Assembly: GCF_044324875.1 (NCBI RefSeq)
Contig: NZ_CP172185.1
Source of the DNA: Escherichia coli
GTDB lineage: Bacteria > Pseudomonadota > Gammaproteobacteria > Enterobacterales > Enterobacteriaceae
DNA length: 64,000 nucleotides
Direction: 5' to 3' (one strand)
A program made the position numbers and the translations under genes. A model generated the notes under the pieces. It worked only from the letters and a program-made list of their open reading frames with translations, was not told the origin of the DNA and made no database searches. Positions 55,873 to 63,726 of this stretch are shown here, one piece after another. Position 1 is the stretch's first letter. Every line of letters starts with the position of its first letter.

Positions 55873-57288
55873 ATGAAAATCAAAACTCGCTTCGCGCCAA
55901 GCCCAACAGGCTATCTGCACGTTGGCGGCGCGCGTACTGCTCTTTACTCCTGGCTTTTTGCACGTAACCACGGCGGTGAGTTCGTGCTGCGTATTGAAGA
56001 CACCGATCTTGAGCGTTCCACGCCGGAAGCTATCGAAGCCATTATGGATGGCATGAACTGGCTGAGCCTGGAGTGGGATGAAGGTCCGTACTACCAGACC
56101 AAACGTTTTGATCGCTACAACGCGGTGATCGATCAGATGCTGGAAGAGGGCACTGCTTATAAATGCTATTGCTCTAAAGAGCGCCTGGAAGCGCTGCGCG
56201 AAGAGCAAATGGCGAAAGGTGAGAAGCCGCGTTATGACGGTCGCTGCCGCCACAGCCATGAGCATCATGCTGATGATGAACCGTGTGTTGTACGTTTTGC
56301 TAACCCGCAGGAAGGTTCTGTTGTTTTTGACGATCAGATCCGTGGTCCGATCGAATTCAGCAACCAGGAGCTGGATGATCTGATTATCCGTCGTACCGAT
56401 GGTTCTCCAACCTATAACTTCTGTGTGGTGGTTGACGACTGGGATATGGAAATCACCCACGTTATCCGTGGCGAAGACCATATCAACAACACGCCACGCC
56501 AGATCAACATTCTTAAAGCACTGAAAGCGCCGGTACCGGTTTACGCGCACGTTTCTATGATCAACGGCGATGACGGCAAAAAACTGTCCAAACGTCACGG
56601 GGCGGTCAGCGTAATGCAGTATCGTGATGACGGTTATTTGCCAGAAGCACTGCTGAACTATCTGGTGCGTCTGGGCTGGTCCCACGGCGATCAGGAAATC
56701 TTCACTCGTGAAGAGATGATCAAATACTTCACCCTGAATGCCGTCAGCAAATCTGCCAGTGCGTTCAACACCGACAAGCTGCTGTGGCTGAACCATCACT
56801 ACATTAACGCGCTGCCGCCGGAGTATGTTGCTACTCACTTACAGTGGCACATTGAGCAGGAAAATATCGATACCCGTAACGGCCCGCAGCTGGCTGATCT
56901 GGTGAAACTACTGGGTGAACGCTGCAAGACGCTGAAAGAGATGGCACAGAGCTGCCGCTATTTCTACGAAGATTTTGCTGAGTTCGATGCCGACGCCGCG
57001 AAAAAACATCTGCGTCCGGTAGCGCGTCAGCCGCTGGAAGTGGTTCGTGACAAACTGGCCGCGATTACTGACTGGACCGCTGAAAACGTTCATCACGCTA
57101 TTCAGGCGACGGCGGATGAGCTGGAAGTGGGGATGGGTAAAGTTGGTATGCCGCTGCGTGTCGCCGTAACCGGTGCGGGGCAGTCTCCGGCGCTGGATGT
57201 TACCGTTCACGCAATCGGTAAGACCCGCAGTATCGAGCGTATCAACAAAGCGCTGGCTTTTATTGCTGAACGCGAAAATCAGCAGTAA
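55873..57288 (+). CDS. gltX: glutamyl-tRNA synthetase
   Basis: 471 aa; class I HIGH-type motif ([12 protein letters not shown]) and KMSKS-type motif (KLSKR). Confidence 0.97.
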
Positions 57289-57304
57289 TTAGCGCATAAA
57301 AGAT

Positions 57305-57337
57305 AAACGGCAGGAGAGATACCCCTGCCGTTTTTTA
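57305..57337 (+). terminator. rho-independent terminator of gltX
   Basis: acggcagg-agagatacc-cctgccgt hairpin followed by a T run. Confidence 0.75.
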
Positions 57338-57338
57338 T

Positions 57339-57731
57339 TTATTCTGATTCATCTATGTCGAGACGAGCAAGGAAATTACGAATTCCTTCGCGTGACAAAA
57401 ATTGCGCAACTTTTTCCTGCTCACTGTGAGTCATGTTGTCTATTGCGCTGATGATTTGCCGATAAGCAGGGGTGCGAATACCCGGTGCGTATTCGGCAAG
57501 GGGTTCTTCGGCTTCCAGAAGCATCGGTGTGTTATGGAAGGCTGGCGTGTTCTGAATAAACTCGCAAACTTGCGTATCGACCAGAATAAGTCTGGCACGA
57601 CCGCCTTTCACGCCAGGAAATTTTTCCGTTTTCCAGCCTTTTTCTCTGATCCAACGGTTAACAGTTTGTTTAGCCACACCGAGGCATTCAGCCAGTTCTT
57701 CGGTGGTCATTTTATTGCGTAATCTTTTCAT
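57339..57731 (-). CDS. yfeD: small HTH DNA-binding protein YfeD
   Basis: 130 aa; N-terminal MTTEELAECLGVAKQTVNRWIREKGW motif, paralogous to the adjacent yfeC product. Confidence 0.85.
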   Translation of the reverse strand: MKRLRNKMTTEELAECLGVAKQTVNRWIREKGWKTEKFPGVKGGRARLILVDTQVCEFIQNTPAFHNTPMLLEAEEPLAEYAPGIRTPAYRQIISAIDNMTHSEQEKVAQFLSREGIRNFLARLDIDESE

Positions 57732-57732
57732 A

Positions 57733-58092
57733 TTATTTGCTATCGCGAATCCCTAAGCGTTGTAATAATCCGATAATCCCTTCCCGCAGAAGCAAGGATG
57801 TAAACTGTTTTTGTTCAACTGGCGTCATCTCTTTCGCCAGTGTCACCAGCAACACTTCAAGCGGCGCATCACCAGACAGGGCAGGCGCTTCTCCCTGACC
57901 TTCTGGACGTTCAGCATTGCGAATATATTCACGAACCTGTTCATTGACGTGAACCAGTCGGGCTTTGCCACCCTGGACGCCAGGTTTTGGTGACGTTGTC
58001 CAGCCTTCCTTGCGTACCCATTTATTAATGGTCTGCCGGCTATAGCCGGTCAGTCTGGCAAGTTCATCTGGCGTCATCCTCTCCTTGAACAT
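57733..58092 (-). CDS. yfeC: small HTH DNA-binding protein YfeC
   Basis: 119 aa; N-terminal MTPDELARLTGYSRQTINKWVRKEGW motif. Confidence 0.85.
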   Translation of the reverse strand: MFKERMTPDELARLTGYSRQTINKWVRKEGWTTSPKPGVQGGKARLVHVNEQVREYIRNAERPEGQGEAPALSGDAPLEVLLVTLAKEMTPVEQKQFTSLLLREGIIGLLQRLGIRDSK

Positions 58093-58251
58093 AACAATTC
58101 CCTGAATGTATGTGGGTCTATTAGTAGTTCATTTTATAACACCACTTTACAGGAAACCGTGACATGAATAACTACTGAATGCGAGCGGTTTTCCAAAATT
58201 GTTCATTTGCCTGATTTTTCAGCGATTGAAACTACACGTTGCAATTTGCCG

Positions 58252-58280
58252 TTGACACATTCGGGCGGAATTCATATGAT
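58252..58280 (+). promoter_or_regulatory. candidate sigma70 promoter of the alaX-alaW tRNA operon
   Basis: TTGACA, 17 nt spacer, TATGAT, then GC-rich discriminator gccgcccg; about 33 nt upstream of the first tRNA-Ala. Confidence 0.6.
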
Positions 58281-58312
58281 GCCGCCCGTCAACTCGACAA
58301 GCTTTACGTGAC

Positions 58313-58388
<76 letters not shown>

Positions 58389-58427
58389 AATTTTGCACCC
58401 AGCAAATTTGGTACGTAAACGCATCGT

Positions 58428-58503
<76 letters not shown>

Positions 58504-58504
58504 A

Positions 58505-58530
58505 ATTTCAAACCCTCGCTGTAAAGCGGG
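58505..58530 (+). terminator. terminator-like hairpin after alaW
   Basis: ccctcgc-tgtaaa-gcggggg stem followed by tttttt. Confidence 0.6.
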
Positions 58531-58710
58531 GGTTTTTTGTCTCTGCTTTTTGCCGCTTTTGTAATACAGTCTACGTCCGGGTTAGCGCCGCCTGGTGAAA
58601 GCATCATTGGATGAAAAATCGGCAACAGGCTGGCCCCTGTTTGCTTCGCGATGCGAATAAACTTATTATTTGTGTGCCTGAAAACCCCGATCAGTGAGAG
58701 TAGTGTACTC

Positions 58711-60900
58711 ATGTTTGTGGAGCATAACCTGATAAAAAATATCAAGATATTCACACTAGCGTTTACGCTCACCGTGGTACTCATTCAGCTATCCCGTTTT
58801 ATTTCGCCACTTGCCATTATCCATTCCAGTTATATCTTTCTGGCGTGGATGCCACTGTGCGTAATGCTGTCAATCTTGTTTATCTTTGGCTGGCGCGGTG
58901 TCGTTCCCGTTTTATGCGGGATGTTTTGCACCAATCTGTGGAACTTTCATCTATCTTTTTTACAGACCGCGGTCATGCTCGGCAGCCAGACGTTTGTTGT
59001 GTTGTGTGCCTGCGCAATATTACGCTGGCAGCTGGGGACGCGTTGGCGTTATGGATTGACCAGCCGATATGTCTGGCAACGTCTTTTCTGGCTTGGTTTG
59101 GTGACGCCGATCGGCATCAAATGCAGCATGTATCTTGTGGGGAGCTTTTTTGATTTCCCGCTAAAGATATCCACCTTTTTCGGCGATGCGGATGCCATTT
59201 TCACAGTCGTTGATTTACTAAGCCTTTTCACCGCTGTGCTGATTTACAACATGCTTTTCTACTATCTCACTCGCATGATTGTAAGTCCCCACTTTGCGCA
59301 GATATTGTGGCGCAGGGATATCGCTCCGTCGTTGAGCAAAGAGAAACGCGCATTTACCTTAAGCTGGCTGGCAGCTCTTAGCGTGCTGCTACTTCTGATG
59401 TGCACACCGTATGAGAATGACTTTATTGCCGGTTACCTGGTACCTGTTTTCTTTATCATCTTTACCCTCGGTGTCGGTAAGCTTCGCTATCCGTTTTTAA
59501 ATCTCACCTGGGCTGTTTCAACGCTTTGCCTGCTGAATTACAACCAGAACTTTTTGCAAGGGGTACTAACCGAATATTCGCTGGCATTTATTCTCGCGGT
59601 GCTGATTTCCTTTAGTGTTTGCCTGCTCTATATGGTGCGCATTTATCATCGCAGTGAATGGCTTAATCGCCGCTGGCATTTGCAGGCGCTGACCGATCCG
59701 TTAACGCTCCTACCCAACTTTCGTGCGTTAGAACAAGCGCCGGAGCAAGAGGCGGGCAAGAGTTTTTGCTGCCTGCGCATTGATAATCTTGAGTTTATGA
59801 GTCGTCATTACGGCTTAATGATGCGCGTTCACTGTATCCGATCAATTTACCGTACGCTGCTGCCGTTGATGCAGGAAAACGAAAAGTTGTATCAATTGCC
59901 GGGTAGTGAACTGCTGTTAGTGCTGAGTGGACCGGAAACGGAAGGGCGACTCCAGCATATGGTTAACATCCTGAATAGTCGGCAAATTCACTGGAACAAT
60001 ACCGGGCTGGATATGGGCTATGGTGCTGCCTGGGGGCGTTTTGATGGAAATCAGGAAACCCTGCAACCCTTGTTGGGGCAGTTAAGCTGGCTGGCGGAGC
60101 AATCCTGCGCACATCACCATGTGCTGGCGCTGGATAGCAGAGAGGAGATGGTTTCCGGGCAGACCACTAAACAGGTGCTATTGCTGAATACCATTCGCAC
60201 GGCGTTAGATCAGGGTGATTTGCTGCTCTACGCCCAGCCAATTCGCAACAAAGAGGGTGAAGGTTATGATGAGATCCTCGCGCGACTGAAATATGACGGC
60301 GGCATTATGACCCCGGATAAGTTTCTGCCCCTTATTGCTCAGTTTAACCTTAGCGCGCGTTTTGATTTGCAAGTGCTGGAATCCCTGTTGAAGTGGCTGG
60401 CAACACATCCTTGCGACAAAAAAGGCCCGCGCTTTTCAGTCAATTTAATGCCGCTCACGCTGCTGCAAAAGAATATTGCCGGGCGGATTATTCGTCTGTT
60501 TAAGCGTTATCACATCTCCCCGCAGGCGGTCATTCTTGAGATCACCGAGGAGCAGGCGTTTTCTAACGCAGAAAGCAGCATGTACAACATCGAGCAACTG
60601 CATAAGGTTGGCTTCCGGATTGCGATTGATGACTTTGGCACCGGCTATGCCAACTACGAACGGTTAAAGCGTTTGCAGGCTGATATCATCAAAATTGATG
60701 GTGTCTTTGTGAAAGATATCGTCACGAATACGCTGGATGCGATGATTGTGAGATCAATTACCGATCTGGCGAAAGCGAAGTCATTGAGTGTGGTCGCGGA
60801 GTTTGTCGAGACGCAACAGCAGCAGGCGCTATTGCATAAGCTCGGGGTGCAATATCTGCAAGGGTATTTGATTGGTCGCCCGCAGCCATTAGCTGATTAA
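58711..60900 (+). CDS. pdeA: membrane-anchored c-di-GMP phosphodiesterase (MASE1 - degenerate GGDEF - EAL)
   Basis: 729 aa from MFVEHNLIKNIKIF; hydrophobic N-terminus; EAL-domain motifs (QPIRNKEG, DDFGTGYANYERLKRL) present and no canonical GGDEF motif seen. Confidence 0.9.
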   Translation: MFVEHNLIKNIKIFTLAFTLTVVLIQLSRFISPLAIIHSSYIFLAWMPLCVMLSILFIFGWRGVVPVLCGMFCTNLWNFHLSFLQTAVMLGSQTFVVLCACAILRWQLGTRWRYGLTSRYVWQRLFWLGLVTPIGIKCSMYLVGSFFDFPLKISTFFGDADAIFTVVDLLSLFTAVLIYNMLFYYLTRMIVSPHFAQILWRRDIAPSLSKEKRAFTLSWLAALSVLLLLMCTPYENDFIAGYLVPVFFIIFTLGVGKLRYPFLNLTWAVSTLCLLNYNQNFLQGVLTEYSLAFILAVLISFSVCLLYMVRIYHRSEWLNRRWHLQALTDPLTLLPNFRALEQAPEQEAGKSFCCLRIDNLEFMSRHYGLMMRVHCIRSIYRTLLPLMQENEKLYQLPGSELLLVLSGPETEGRLQHMVNILNSRQIHWNNTGLDMGYGAAWGRFDGNQETLQPLLGQLSWLAEQSCAHHHVLALDSREEMVSGQTTKQVLLLNTIRTALDQGDLLLYAQPIRNKEGEGYDEILARLKYDGGIMTPDKFLPLIAQFNLSARFDLQVLESLLKWLATHPCDKKGPRFSVNLMPLTLLQKNIAGRIIRLFKRYHISPQAVILEITEEQAFSNAESSMYNIEQLHKVGFRIAIDDFGTGYANYERLKRLQADIIKIDGVFVKDIVTNTLDAMIVRSITDLAKAKSLSVVAEFVETQQQQALLHKLGVQYLQGYLIGRPQPLAD

Positions 60901-60907
60901 CAGGCGT

Positions 60908-60939
60908 AAAAAAACCGGGGAATTATCCCCGGCTTTTTT
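60908..60939. terminator. bidirectional rho-independent terminator between pdeA and nupC
   Basis: aaaaaaccgggg-aattat-ccccggctttttt. Confidence 0.8.
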
Positions 60940-60949
60940 ATGTATGGTC

Positions 60950-62152
60950 TTACAGCACCAGTGCTGCGATTGACGCAGACAGCACACTCACCAGGGTAGA
61001 GCCGTAAACCAGTTTCAGACCGAAGCGAGAAACCACGTTACCTTGCTCTTCATTCAGGCCTTTAACTGCACCTGCGATAATCCCGATTGAAGAGAAGTTA
61101 GCGAAGGAAACCAGGAACACAGAGATGATGCCTTCAGCACGCGGAGAGAGCGTGGAAGCAATTTTCTGCAGATCCATCATCGCAACGAACTCGTTGGAAA
61201 CCAGTTTGGTCGCCATGATACTGCCCACTTGCAGTGCTTCACTGGAAGGAACACCCATCACCCATGCAATCGGATAGAAGATGTAGCCCAGGATGCCCTG
61301 GAAGGAGATGCTGTAGCCAAACCAGCCAGTCACGGTAGCAAACAGTGCGTTCAGCGCGGCGATCAGGGCGATAAAGCCGATCAGCATCGCGGCAACGATA
61401 ATGGCGACTTTGAAACCTGCCAGAATGTATTCACCCAGCATTTCGAAGAAGCTCTGACCTTCGTGCAGGTTGGACATCTGGATGTTTTCTTCACTGGCAT
61501 CAACACGGTAAGGGTTGATCAGCGACAGCACGATAAAGGTGCTGAACATGTTCAGTACCAGTGCCGCAACGACGTATTTCGGTTCCAGCATGGTCATGTA
61601 TGCACCAACGATGGACATCGACACGGTGGACATCGCCGTTGCTGCCATGGTGTACATACGATTGCGGGAGATTTTGCCGAGGATGTCTTTATAGGCAATA
61701 AAGTTTTCAGACTGACCCAGAATCAGGGAGCTGACGGCGTTAAAGGATTCCAGTTTGCCCATGCCGTTGACTTTGGAGAGCAGGAAACCAATTGCGCGGA
61801 TAATCACCGGCAACACGCGAATGTGCTGGAGAATACCGATCAATGCAGAGATAAAGACAATTGGGCACAGCACTTTCAGGAAGAAGAATGCCAGGCCTTG
61901 ATCATTCATGCTACCAAAGACGAAGTTAGTCCCTTCGTTGGCAAATCCGAGCAGTTTTTCGAACATTTCGGAGAAGCCTTTCACGAAGCCTAAACCAACG
62001 TCGGAGTTCAGGAAGAACCACGCCAGTAACACTTCGATAACAAGCAGTTGAATAACATAACGGATACGAATTTTTTTGCGGTCGCTGCTTACCAGCAGTG
62101 CGAGAATCGCAACAACGGCAAGTGCCAGTACAAAATGAAGGACGCGGTCCAT
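60950..62152 (-). CDS. nupC: nucleoside:H+ symporter NupC
   Basis: Protein from [33 protein letters not shown] recognised as NupC (400 aa); track ORF extends 13 codons upstream. Confidence 0.93.
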
Positions 62153-62421
62153 ATTTGCTCCAAATATGAGGCAGGTTAAATTTCCGTGCACATTCTATGT
62201 AACATGGTTAAGGAAAACGAGATCTGACACACACTATAATGACGTCCTGTGACCAGCTTCAAAAATAGTGAGCTGTCATACATTTCTGCTATGTTGTGTA
62301 TGGAAGCTGAAAGTTATGTAAATGTGCTAACATTAAACATAACCATAACATTCAAGTCATCAATCTTTTCGTAGTCATAATCCTGGTCTATCAGAGAAAT
62401 CACCACAACCCATTTAAATGA

Positions 62422-62440
62422 ATTTGATAATCATTCTCGT
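62422..62440 (+). promoter_or_regulatory. candidate Fur box in the mntH promoter
   Basis: tttgataatcattctcgtt resembles the GATAATGATAATCATTATC Fur consensus. Confidence 0.5.
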
Positions 62441-62453
62441 TTGACATAGCATG

Positions 62454-62475
62454 AAACATAGCAAAGGCTATGTTT
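62454..62475 (+). promoter_or_regulatory. candidate MntR operator (perfect palindrome)
   Basis: AAACATAGC-aaag-GCTATGTTT inverted repeat 13 bp upstream of the mntH ATG. Confidence 0.65.
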
Positions 62476-62478
62476 TAG

Positions 62479-63726
<1,248 letters not shown>

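Follow-up and report, generated by a model that had tools for sequence, protein, structure and literature searches.

The pdeA gene of Escherichia coli most probably encodes an inner-membrane cyclic di-GMP (c-di-GMP) phosphodiesterase (PDE) in which a MASE1 domain is connected through a degenerate GGDEF relay to a hydrolysing EAL domain, an explanation to which we assign, as a whole, a probability of about 0.85. The gene was analysed in a window of 64,000 nucleotides of E. coli DNA, and its main parts are the following.

58711..60900, + strand: coding sequence of pdeA (yfeA, b2395), 729 amino acids plus stop (ORF list, K-12 identity, RefSeq annotation)
58756..59655, + strand: MASE1 integral-membrane sensor domain, amino acids 16–315 (Pfam PF05231)
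59572..59688, + strand: last transmembrane helix continuing into a cytoplasmic stalk helix, amino acids 288–326 (model, hydrophobicity)
59686..60135, + strand: degenerate GGDEF-fold domain, amino acids 326–475 (profile search, model, Foldseek)
60187..60882, + strand: EAL domain, amino acids 493–724 (Pfam PF00563)

The gene, pdeA (earlier name yfeA), belongs to the core genes of E. coli, and 5425 of the 5426 complete genomes of the species carry it. Positions 58711–60900 (+) correspond exactly to a 729-codon ORF plus stop in the ORF list and match the CDS that RefSeq annotates as pdeA in the nearest genome. An E. coli protein deposited at NCBI (P0001) matches the encoded protein at 100% identity. 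The encoded protein has the same length as K-12 PdeA (YfeA, b2395), with 724 of 729 amino acids identical (99.3%) and no gaps. The two share the flanking genes, the three domains, and the PGSEL and EIL motifs; the five substitutions relative to K-12 (G209S, L230M, E286L, C380Y, and F633V) leave the motif residues untouched.

The MASE1 domain is recognized strongly by Pfam (222 bits against a cut-off of 29.8, profile positions 2–298 of 299). It contains about 8–10 hydrophobic segments and forms a bundle of helices in the full-length AlphaFold model, in which the domain-to-domain arrangement has low confidence (pTM 0.49). The same model shows one unbroken helix, H288–326, with a hydrophobic core at residues 291–309, which stops 2 residues ahead of the sequence DPLTxLPNxRAL at the start of the GGDEF-like domain. 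The DPLT..LPN.RAL pattern is kept in PdeA orthologs. MASE1 would provide the signal input, with its last transmembrane helix running on as a stalk helix straight into the GGDEF-like domain, and it is more plausibly the sensory module of PdeA than the GGDEF-like domain is.

The GGDEF-like middle domain

The original prediction placed a degenerate GGDEF domain upstream of the EAL domain, and this arrangement is borne out by profile and fold comparison, though Pfam stays below its threshold. The Pfam GGDEF family (PF00990) scores 20.4 bits against a gathering cut-off of 23.8 and covers only profile positions 1–109 of 161, and TIGR00254 is also sub-threshold on PdeA (12.8 against 37.4). A single-sequence search of the PDB sequences with the middle domain returned no GGDEF match, only chance matches with E>0.5. 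On the other side, an ortholog profile compared with the PDB matches only GGDEF cyclases, the best being DgcZ (E=8.8e-4). The AlphaFold model of the middle domain has a pLDDT of 84.9, and every one of its best 50 Foldseek matches in the PDB is a GGDEF-domain structure (E 1.5e-10 to 9.3e-8). The TMq values are 0.75 for the top match (3mtk), 0.78 for DgcZ (3tvk), and 0.77–0.79 for 4h54 and 5xgb/5xge, the latter range being that of the RbdA GGDEF fold. As modeled, the middle domain of PdeA has a true GGDEF (nucleotidyl-cyclase-like) fold. The domain is so degenerate that its Pfam score falls below the threshold, and its assignment needed the ortholog profile and the fold comparison.

Two segments of the domain correspond to the active site of canonical GGDEF proteins.

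59776..59829, + strand: RIDNLEFMSRHYGLMMRV, amino acids 356–373, equivalent of PleD D327–D344 (alignments to RbdA and DgcZ)
59899..59913, + strand: PGSEL, amino acids 397–401, degenerate counterpart of the GG(D/E)EF active-site motif (alignments)

The middle domain had been said to lack any GG(D/E)EF motif, and indeed neither a GG[DE]EF nor an RxxD string occurs anywhere in the PdeA protein. The sequence that aligns on the GGDEF/GGEEF of RbdA (5xgb) and DgcZ (3tvk) is PGSEL, which is found as PG[SNC]E[LM] in 30/30 orthologs, with P397, G398, and E400 invariant. The alignments to RbdA and DgcZ agree on the register of RIDNLEFMSRHYGLMMRV, which also fits the first part of the residue signature published for yfeA, ESRLVQPGSEL / EILR QRDD TE ENEEDKEQ (PMC3484386). 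In PleD numbering, the metal-binding Asp D327 is replaced by R356, K332 by E361, and the guanine-binding N335 and D344 by S364 and V373; the loss of the metal- and guanine-binding residues is seen in two independent alignments. Orthologs likewise show D327 replaced by R/H/Y, K332 by E, N335 by S, D336 by R/K, H340 by L/M/I, D344 by V/L/I/G, and GGDEF by PGSEL. The RxxD of the I-site, five residues upstream of the GGDEF motif, is replaced by QENE (amino acids 388–391), positions that vary among orthologs with the exception of E391.

The mean identity to orthologs is 62% for the degenerate domain, 53% for MASE1, and 68% for the EAL domain. Relative to K-12, the degenerate domain carries 6 synonymous codon changes and 1 non-synonymous change. 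By these sequence measures, together with the kept PGSEL, the domain is under constraint. Its residues, fold, and ortholog conservation, along with the literature, support a non-catalytic role. The GGDEF-like domain would make no c-di-GMP and would probably bind no GTP. Its conservation is compatible with a role as a structural relay from the MASE1 sensor to the EAL domain, and it may act as a relay or spacer that sets the arrangement of the EAL domains, probably their dimer geometry.

The paralog PdeF reportedly depends on its dead GGDEF domain to dimerise and to reach full PDE activity. In two-hybrid experiments with isolated GGDEF domains, only those of PdeK and PdeR homodimerised strongly, and that of PdeA did not (PMC5635695). 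Since the PdeA domain is not a strong homodimeriser, a dimerisation role for this domain alone is unsupported.

Two other roles for the domain have to be weighed against the relay. The conserved GGDEF-like domain, with its invariant P397-G398-x-E400 loop, could have been re-used to dock a different small ligand or a partner protein. PdeA would then receive a cytoplasmic signal as its second input, in addition to the membrane signal of MASE1. We regard this re-use, together with a related reading on the tuning of the EAL domain given below, as unlikely.

The second role is that of a nucleotide-sensing allosteric module, in which the degenerate domain would still bind a guanine nucleotide, GTP or another, and so activate the EAL domain. 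The models for this are CC3396/PdeA of C. crescentus, which is said to be activated by GTP, and RbdA (PA0861) of P. aeruginosa (5xgb/5xgd). Both have a cytoplasmic tandem GGDEF-EAL arrangement with an active-type EAL domain, as PdeA does, and RbdA shares with PdeA the EFVE variant of EGVE. The kept GGDEF fold, the conservation of the domain among orthologs, and the fact that the best tandem-domain PDB match is RbdA GGDEF-EAL crystallised with GTP (5xgd) are in line with this model. However, CC3396 keeps GEDEF and RbdA keeps GGDEF, with a GTP-binding A-site, whereas PdeA has PGSEL, no RxxD, and replacements of all canonical GTP-, base-, and metal-binding residues that are consistent across orthologs. 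The N-terminal sensor also differs, being MASE1 in PdeA and PAS in the CC3396/RbdA type. With every residue for GTP and metal binding replaced, GTP-type allostery is very unlikely in PdeA, and the popular model of degenerate GGDEF domains as GTP-allosteric modules fits its residues poorly. Of the initial interpretation, the part that stands is a phosphodiesterase with a non-catalytic GGDEF domain, backed by residues, fold, orthologs, and literature. The sensory or allosteric role that it gave to this domain is supposition, and the GTP-type form of allostery does not find support in the residues.

The EAL domain

The EAL domain gives a Pfam score of 201.2 bits (PF00563, cut-off 31.3) over profile positions 2–236 of 236. 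Its matches among PDB sequences are the EAL domains of MucR, RbdA, MorA, PA3825, RocR, PdeL, and DosP, with E values down to 4e-38. The segments that matter for activity are listed below.

60271..60285, + strand: EILAR, amino acids 521–525, variant of the EAL signature with the metal-binding Glu and phosphate-binding Arg
60334..60351, + strand: IAQFNL, amino acids 542–547, with Ala543 at the position of TBD1265 Glu546 (alignments)
60628..60651, + strand: DDFGTGYA, amino acids 640–647, metal-binding aspartates and loop 6 (sequence)

The residues E521, R525, N578, E610/E613, D640/D641, K661, E697/E700, and Q717 are present, in the strings E521-I-L-A-R525, E610-I-T-E613, D640-D641-FGTGYA, and E697-F-V-E700. 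All of them are invariant across 30 orthologs of 55–71% identity, as is L523. DDFGTGYA is identical in 29/30 orthologs, and the loop at residues 645–650 has low confidence in the model. The EAL residues of the protein in the window agree with the published EILR/QRDD/TE/ENEEDKEQ, and EILR is listed both for yfeA and for its active paralog yfgF (PMC3484386). The claims that EAL-type catalytic residues are kept and that the GGDEF site is not intact both hold on alignment. The metal, phosphate, and catalytic-Lys residues of the EAL domain are retained, with Ala543 as the one departure. The C-terminal EAL domains of PdeA would hydrolyse c-di-GMP to pGpG.

Ala543 is the sole difference from the reference EAL residue set. 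It aligns with the Glu of MucR 'LAEKTGL' and RbdA 'AAERYGL', at the position of Glu546 in the TBD1265 residue list for active EAL domains (quoted in PMC6629876), the first Glu of the 'AEE(T/S)G' segment. Ala is found at this position in 29/30 orthologs, within a conserved IAQFNLS, including Salmonella YfeA. With this family-wide change, the EAL domain could be tuned to catalyse slowly and in strong dependence on a signal.

In a stronger form of the argument, the change would leave the EAL domain weak or inactive, and PdeA would mainly be a c-di-GMP-binding sensor, scaffold, or trigger. Ala543 does lie at a listed reference active-site position, and the biofilm defect of the CFT073 yfeA mutant is complemented by a heterologous PDE and by a heterologous diguanylate cyclase (DGC) alike (PMC3484386). 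The literature searched yielded no biochemical assay of the E. coli protein, and for this reason enzymologists should bear in mind that an EAL residue on the common lists is missing from the whole YfeA family. EAL domains known to be inactive have lost metal ligands, the catalytic Lys, the phosphate-binding Arg, or loop 6, but all of these are invariant in PdeA. The Salmonella Typhimurium ortholog YfeA (STM2410; 68% identity, with shared architecture and motifs), which has the same IAQFNLS, is genetically required for c-di-GMP lowering, being needed for the c-di-GMP drop and aggregation induced by 5-oxoproline (PMC9509341), a signal shown in Salmonella only. PdeF carries His-Glu in place of the Ala543-Gln544 of PdeA and is also without a Glu at the exact Glu546 position, yet it is described as catalytically active (PMC3718329). 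A mainly non-enzymatic PdeA is highly improbable on these grounds, and the activity of PdeA as a hydrolysing phosphodiesterase is supported indirectly, by its sequence together with the Salmonella genetics.

Related proteins and earlier descriptions of PdeA

Proteins that combine a dead GGDEF domain with a live EAL domain form a textbook class. The closest comparison within E. coli is PdeF (YfgF, b2503), which is anaerobically expressed and has been described as very similar to PdeA in structure. The two proteins are collinear over the three domains, with 29% identity over 711 amino acids. The GGDEF domain of PdeF is likewise degenerate (SGNDL against PGSEL of PdeA), and PdeF has an EIL-type motif and an identical catalytic set. 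It is nevertheless a separate paralog with a divergent MASE1, and the aspartate-chemotaxis phenotype of YfgF is not reproduced by YfeA (PMC3718329).

PdeA and PdeF have been described as 'MASE1-GGDEFdeg-EAL' PDEs (PMC6510439), and both PMC3718329 and PMC6510439 contain statements on PdeA as a phosphodiesterase. The dead-GGDEF/EAL architecture and the residue signature of PdeA are already known; the observation is correct and not new. It has little weight as a discovery because both have been published.

The RefSeq/PGAP product name of pdeA varies among records. In several genomes it is 'bifunctional diguanylate cyclase/phosphodiesterase', while other records have 'sensor domain-containing phosphodiesterase' and K-12 has 'putative cyclic di-GMP phosphodiesterase PdeA'. 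The first and common name is misleading, and bifunctional activity, for which this name speaks, is rejected as next to impossible on the residue evidence, with GG(D/E)EF, the metal-binding Asp, and the guanine-binding Asn/Asp all missing, the Pfam GGDEF score sub-threshold, and other records naming PdeA as a phosphodiesterase alone.

Locus and flanking sequences

The gene order gltX-yfeD-yfeC-tRNA-Ala x2-pdeA-nupC-mntH in the window is that of K-12, and the position of pdeA between tRNA-Ala (alaX/alaW) and nupC is conserved, as expected for members of one orthologous group. K-12 differs in that IS186C sits between pdeA and nupC, an element that is not in the window. The flanking features are the following.

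58313–58388 and 58428–58503: two tRNA-Ala(GGC) genes, upstream of pdeA
58510..58535, + strand: terminator-like hairpin 3' of the two tRNA-Ala(GGC) genes, separating them from pdeA
60915..60932, both strands: GC-rich hairpin between an A-run and a T-run, resembling a bidirectional terminator

An Rfam search of positions 57000–63000 at the gathering threshold returned just the two tRNA-Ala genes and no regulatory RNA upstream of pdeA. A 749-amino-acid ORF from the in-frame ATG at 58651 was considered as the start of pdeA and rejected, because RefSeq and the orthologs begin at the Met of 58711. Two further ORFs are unsupported: one at 58377–58784 (−), which overlaps the tRNA-Ala genes, and one at 58845–59153 (+), which lies inside pdeA in another frame. 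On the downstream side, the hairpin at 60915..60932 lies between the convergent pdeA and nupC genes.

Domain architecture of PdeA

The middle domain of PdeA had been proposed to lack any GG(D/E)EF motif and to precede an EAL domain with intact catalytic residues. The Pfam search returns MASE1 and EAL strongly and GGDEF below the gathering cut-off:

58711–60900, + strand: pdeA open reading frame, 729 codons plus stop
Residues 16–315: MASE1, 222 bits
Residues 326–423: GGDEF, 20.4 bits (cut-off 23.8 bits; two thirds of the profile covered)
Residues 493–724: EAL, 201 bits

The NCBIfam GGDEF model also scores far under its cut-off. The whole protein contains no GG[DE]EF string and no RxxD string, and PGSEL occupies the motif position, in agreement with the proposal. 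The domain is degenerate enough that its assignment itself called for a test. Searched alone, the middle-domain sequence matched none of the GGDEF structures in the PDB. A profile built from the middle domains of 26 orthologs matches GGDEF cyclases only, the best being DgcZ (E=8.8e-4), whose GGEEF lines up with PGSEL. The AlphaFold model of the middle domain, built from the ortholog alignment, is confident (pLDDT 84.9, pTM 0.79), and GGDEF-domain structures account for all of its best 50 Foldseek matches in the PDB, among them DgcZ, RbdA (P. aeruginosa PA0861), SiaD, PleD, WspR, and DosC. The TMq is 0.75 for the top match (3mtk) and 0.77–0.79 for DgcZ and RbdA, at 12–19% identity. Based on the profile, the model, and the Foldseek matches, the middle domain is a true GGDEF-fold domain.

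Nucleotide-site losses in the GGDEF-like domain

Two independent alignments, to RbdA and to DgcZ, agree on the register of this domain. The roles of the PleD residues are well established, and in PleD numbering the replacements are as follows:

D327 (metal ligand): R356
K332: E361
N335 (guanine binding): S364
D336: R365
H340: L369
D344 (guanine binding): V373
R366: Q395
GGEEF active-site motif: PGSEL, residues 397–401
RxxD I-site: QENE, residues 388–391

The PleD residue list is also quoted in PMC6629876, and the PdeA replacements exactly match the yfeA signature "ESRLVQPGSEL" (Table 1, PMC3484386). The same replacements are found across 30 orthologs of 55–71% identity (Citrobacter, Salmonella, Enterobacter, Leclercia, Lelliottia, and Kosakonia). 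As these residues are replaced in PdeA and in all 30 orthologs, the GGDEF-like domain is predicted to be unable to make c-di-GMP and in all likelihood lacks canonical GTP binding. The original prediction of a sensory or allosteric rather than catalytic domain is therefore partly supported: support extends to the non-catalytic part only, since the A-site residues are replaced, and GTP-sensing allostery of the kind found in C. crescentus CC3396 and RbdA is disfavoured by the same replacements.

The EAL active site and a proposed signal relay

The residues Q509, E521-I-L-A-R525, N578, E610-I-T-E613, D640-D641-F-G-T-G-Y-A, K661, E697-F-V-E700, and Q717 are present in PdeA and invariant in the 30 orthologs. 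This confirms the original observation on PdeA, with Ala543 as the one departure. The EFVE variant of EGVE is common to PdeA and RbdA, an active phosphodiesterase. The yfeA signature EILR/QRDD/TE/ENEEDKEQ is the same as in other E. coli proteins with a conserved EAL signature (PMC3484386).

Ala543 lies inside the conserved IAQFNLS segment (IAQFNL, residues 542–547, 60334–60351 in the window), at the position of TBD1265 Glu546, a residue on the commonly used reference list (PMC6629876). Most EAL phosphodiesterases have Glu at this position, the first Glu of an AE(E/K)xG segment 23 residues past the EAL Glu, whereas YfeA/PdeA orthologs carry Ala throughout the family; the position is unscored in the published E. 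coli residue tables examined. Salmonella YfeA, with the same segment, is needed genetically for a signal-induced fall in c-di-GMP (PMC9509341), and in the paralog PdeF, whose catalytic activity is described in PMC3718329, His stands in place of Ala543. Ala543 is therefore a point of caution and is not taken to mean that the EAL domain is inactive. Both the intact metal site and the Salmonella genetics speak against PdeA being a sensor with an enzymatically silent EAL domain. The literature searched yielded no in vitro enzyme assays of E. coli PdeA, so we infer its phosphodiesterase activity. In many genomes PGAP names the product a bifunctional diguanylate cyclase/phosphodiesterase, which every A-site residue contradicts.

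PdeA runs from the multi-pass membrane MASE1 domain through the GGDEF-fold domain to EAL. The full-length model shows the last transmembrane helix running unbroken (residues 288–326) and stopping two residues short of the conserved DPLTxLPNxRAL that opens GGDEF domains; the linker to EAL (residues 476–486) has low confidence. Mean ortholog identity to the window protein is 62% for the GGDEF-like domain, above MASE1 (53%) and near EAL (68%). P397, G398, and E400 of PGSEL are also invariant in the orthologs, and the domain differs from K-12 by six synonymous codon changes and one non-synonymous. By these measures the dead domain is not decaying. Together, the architecture, continuous helix, and conserved dead domain suggest a relay in which MASE1 would perceive a signal, possibly 5-oxoproline or something downstream of it by analogy with Salmonella, and pass it through the stalk helix and GGDEF-like domain, setting the geometry of the EAL domains that would hydrolyse c-di-GMP. 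The dead GGDEF domain of PdeF was reportedly found by Lacey and colleagues in 2010 to be required for dimerisation and full activity. The isolated GGDEF(PdeA) is outside the set of degenerate GGDEF domains that homodimerise strongly in two-hybrid assays (PMC5635695), which counts against a simple dimerisation role. Heavy proteolysis between domains has been reported for PdeA, as for the MASE1 protein DgcE (PMC6510439).

This feature was known before, and the finding repeats the literature: the architecture ([quoted passage not shown]) is given in PMC6510439 and the residues, in a table including yfeA, in PMC3484386.

The pdeA locus and its variation

The pdeA product of the window is identical to K-12 PdeA (b2395, formerly YfeA) at 724 of 729 residues with no gaps, and matches P0001, a deposited E. 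coli protein representing a cluster of 9554 sequences, at 100%. The gene order (gltX, yfeD, yfeC, two tRNA-Ala(GGC) genes, pdeA, convergent nupC, mntH) is as in K-12. By megablast of 58500–61000, the locus is present in 5425 of the 5426 complete E. coli genomes, which makes pdeA a core gene. Over this stretch, the top nucleotide identity among the 5426 complete RefSeq genomes is 99.6%, mostly 95–99%, so the set lacks the source strain at this locus; protein P0001 is nonetheless identical. The flanking elements are:

58252–58280, + strand: near-consensus sigma-70 promoter-like site (11/12 matches), 5' of the two tRNA-Ala(GGC) genes
58510–58535, + strand: strong terminator-like hairpin, 3' of both tRNA-Ala(GGC) genes
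60915–60932, both strands: hairpin, terminator-like in either direction, between pdeA and nupC

The promoter-like site and the first hairpin bound the upstream alaW-alaX unit, and because of the two hairpins pdeA looks monocistronic. Over 57000–63000, an Rfam search at the gathering threshold matched tRNAs only.

The 49-bp pdeA-nupC spacer (60901–60949) contains the bidirectional hairpin. K-12 MG1655 has IS186C between these genes (locus L002, 9274–10618), whereas the window has no IS there, and several pig ETEC genomes have an IS200C transposase gene inside the matched stretch; the spot thus attracts insertions.

RefSeq annotations and the aligned orthologs start at ATG 58711; an ATG in the same frame 60 nt further upstream (58651–58710) would give a 749-residue product. 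A 135-residue antisense ORF (58377–58784, − strand) spans the tRNA-Ala pair and the start of pdeA and almost certainly does not represent a gene. Codon 286 (59566–59568), in a MASE1 loop or helix, is GAA (Glu) in K-12 and CTA (Leu) in the window, a two-nucleotide change; Leu286 is shared with strain PCN033 and is therefore a natural allele rather than an error. The deposited proteins matched by PdeA include truncated or split forms (P0028, P0027, P0024, and P0007): a 440-residue "MASE1 family protein" of Shigella flexneri K-227 (cluster of 314 sequences), a 445-residue EAL-only fragment, and E. coli variants of 488–614 residues, which suggests that pdeA is pseudogenised in some lineages.
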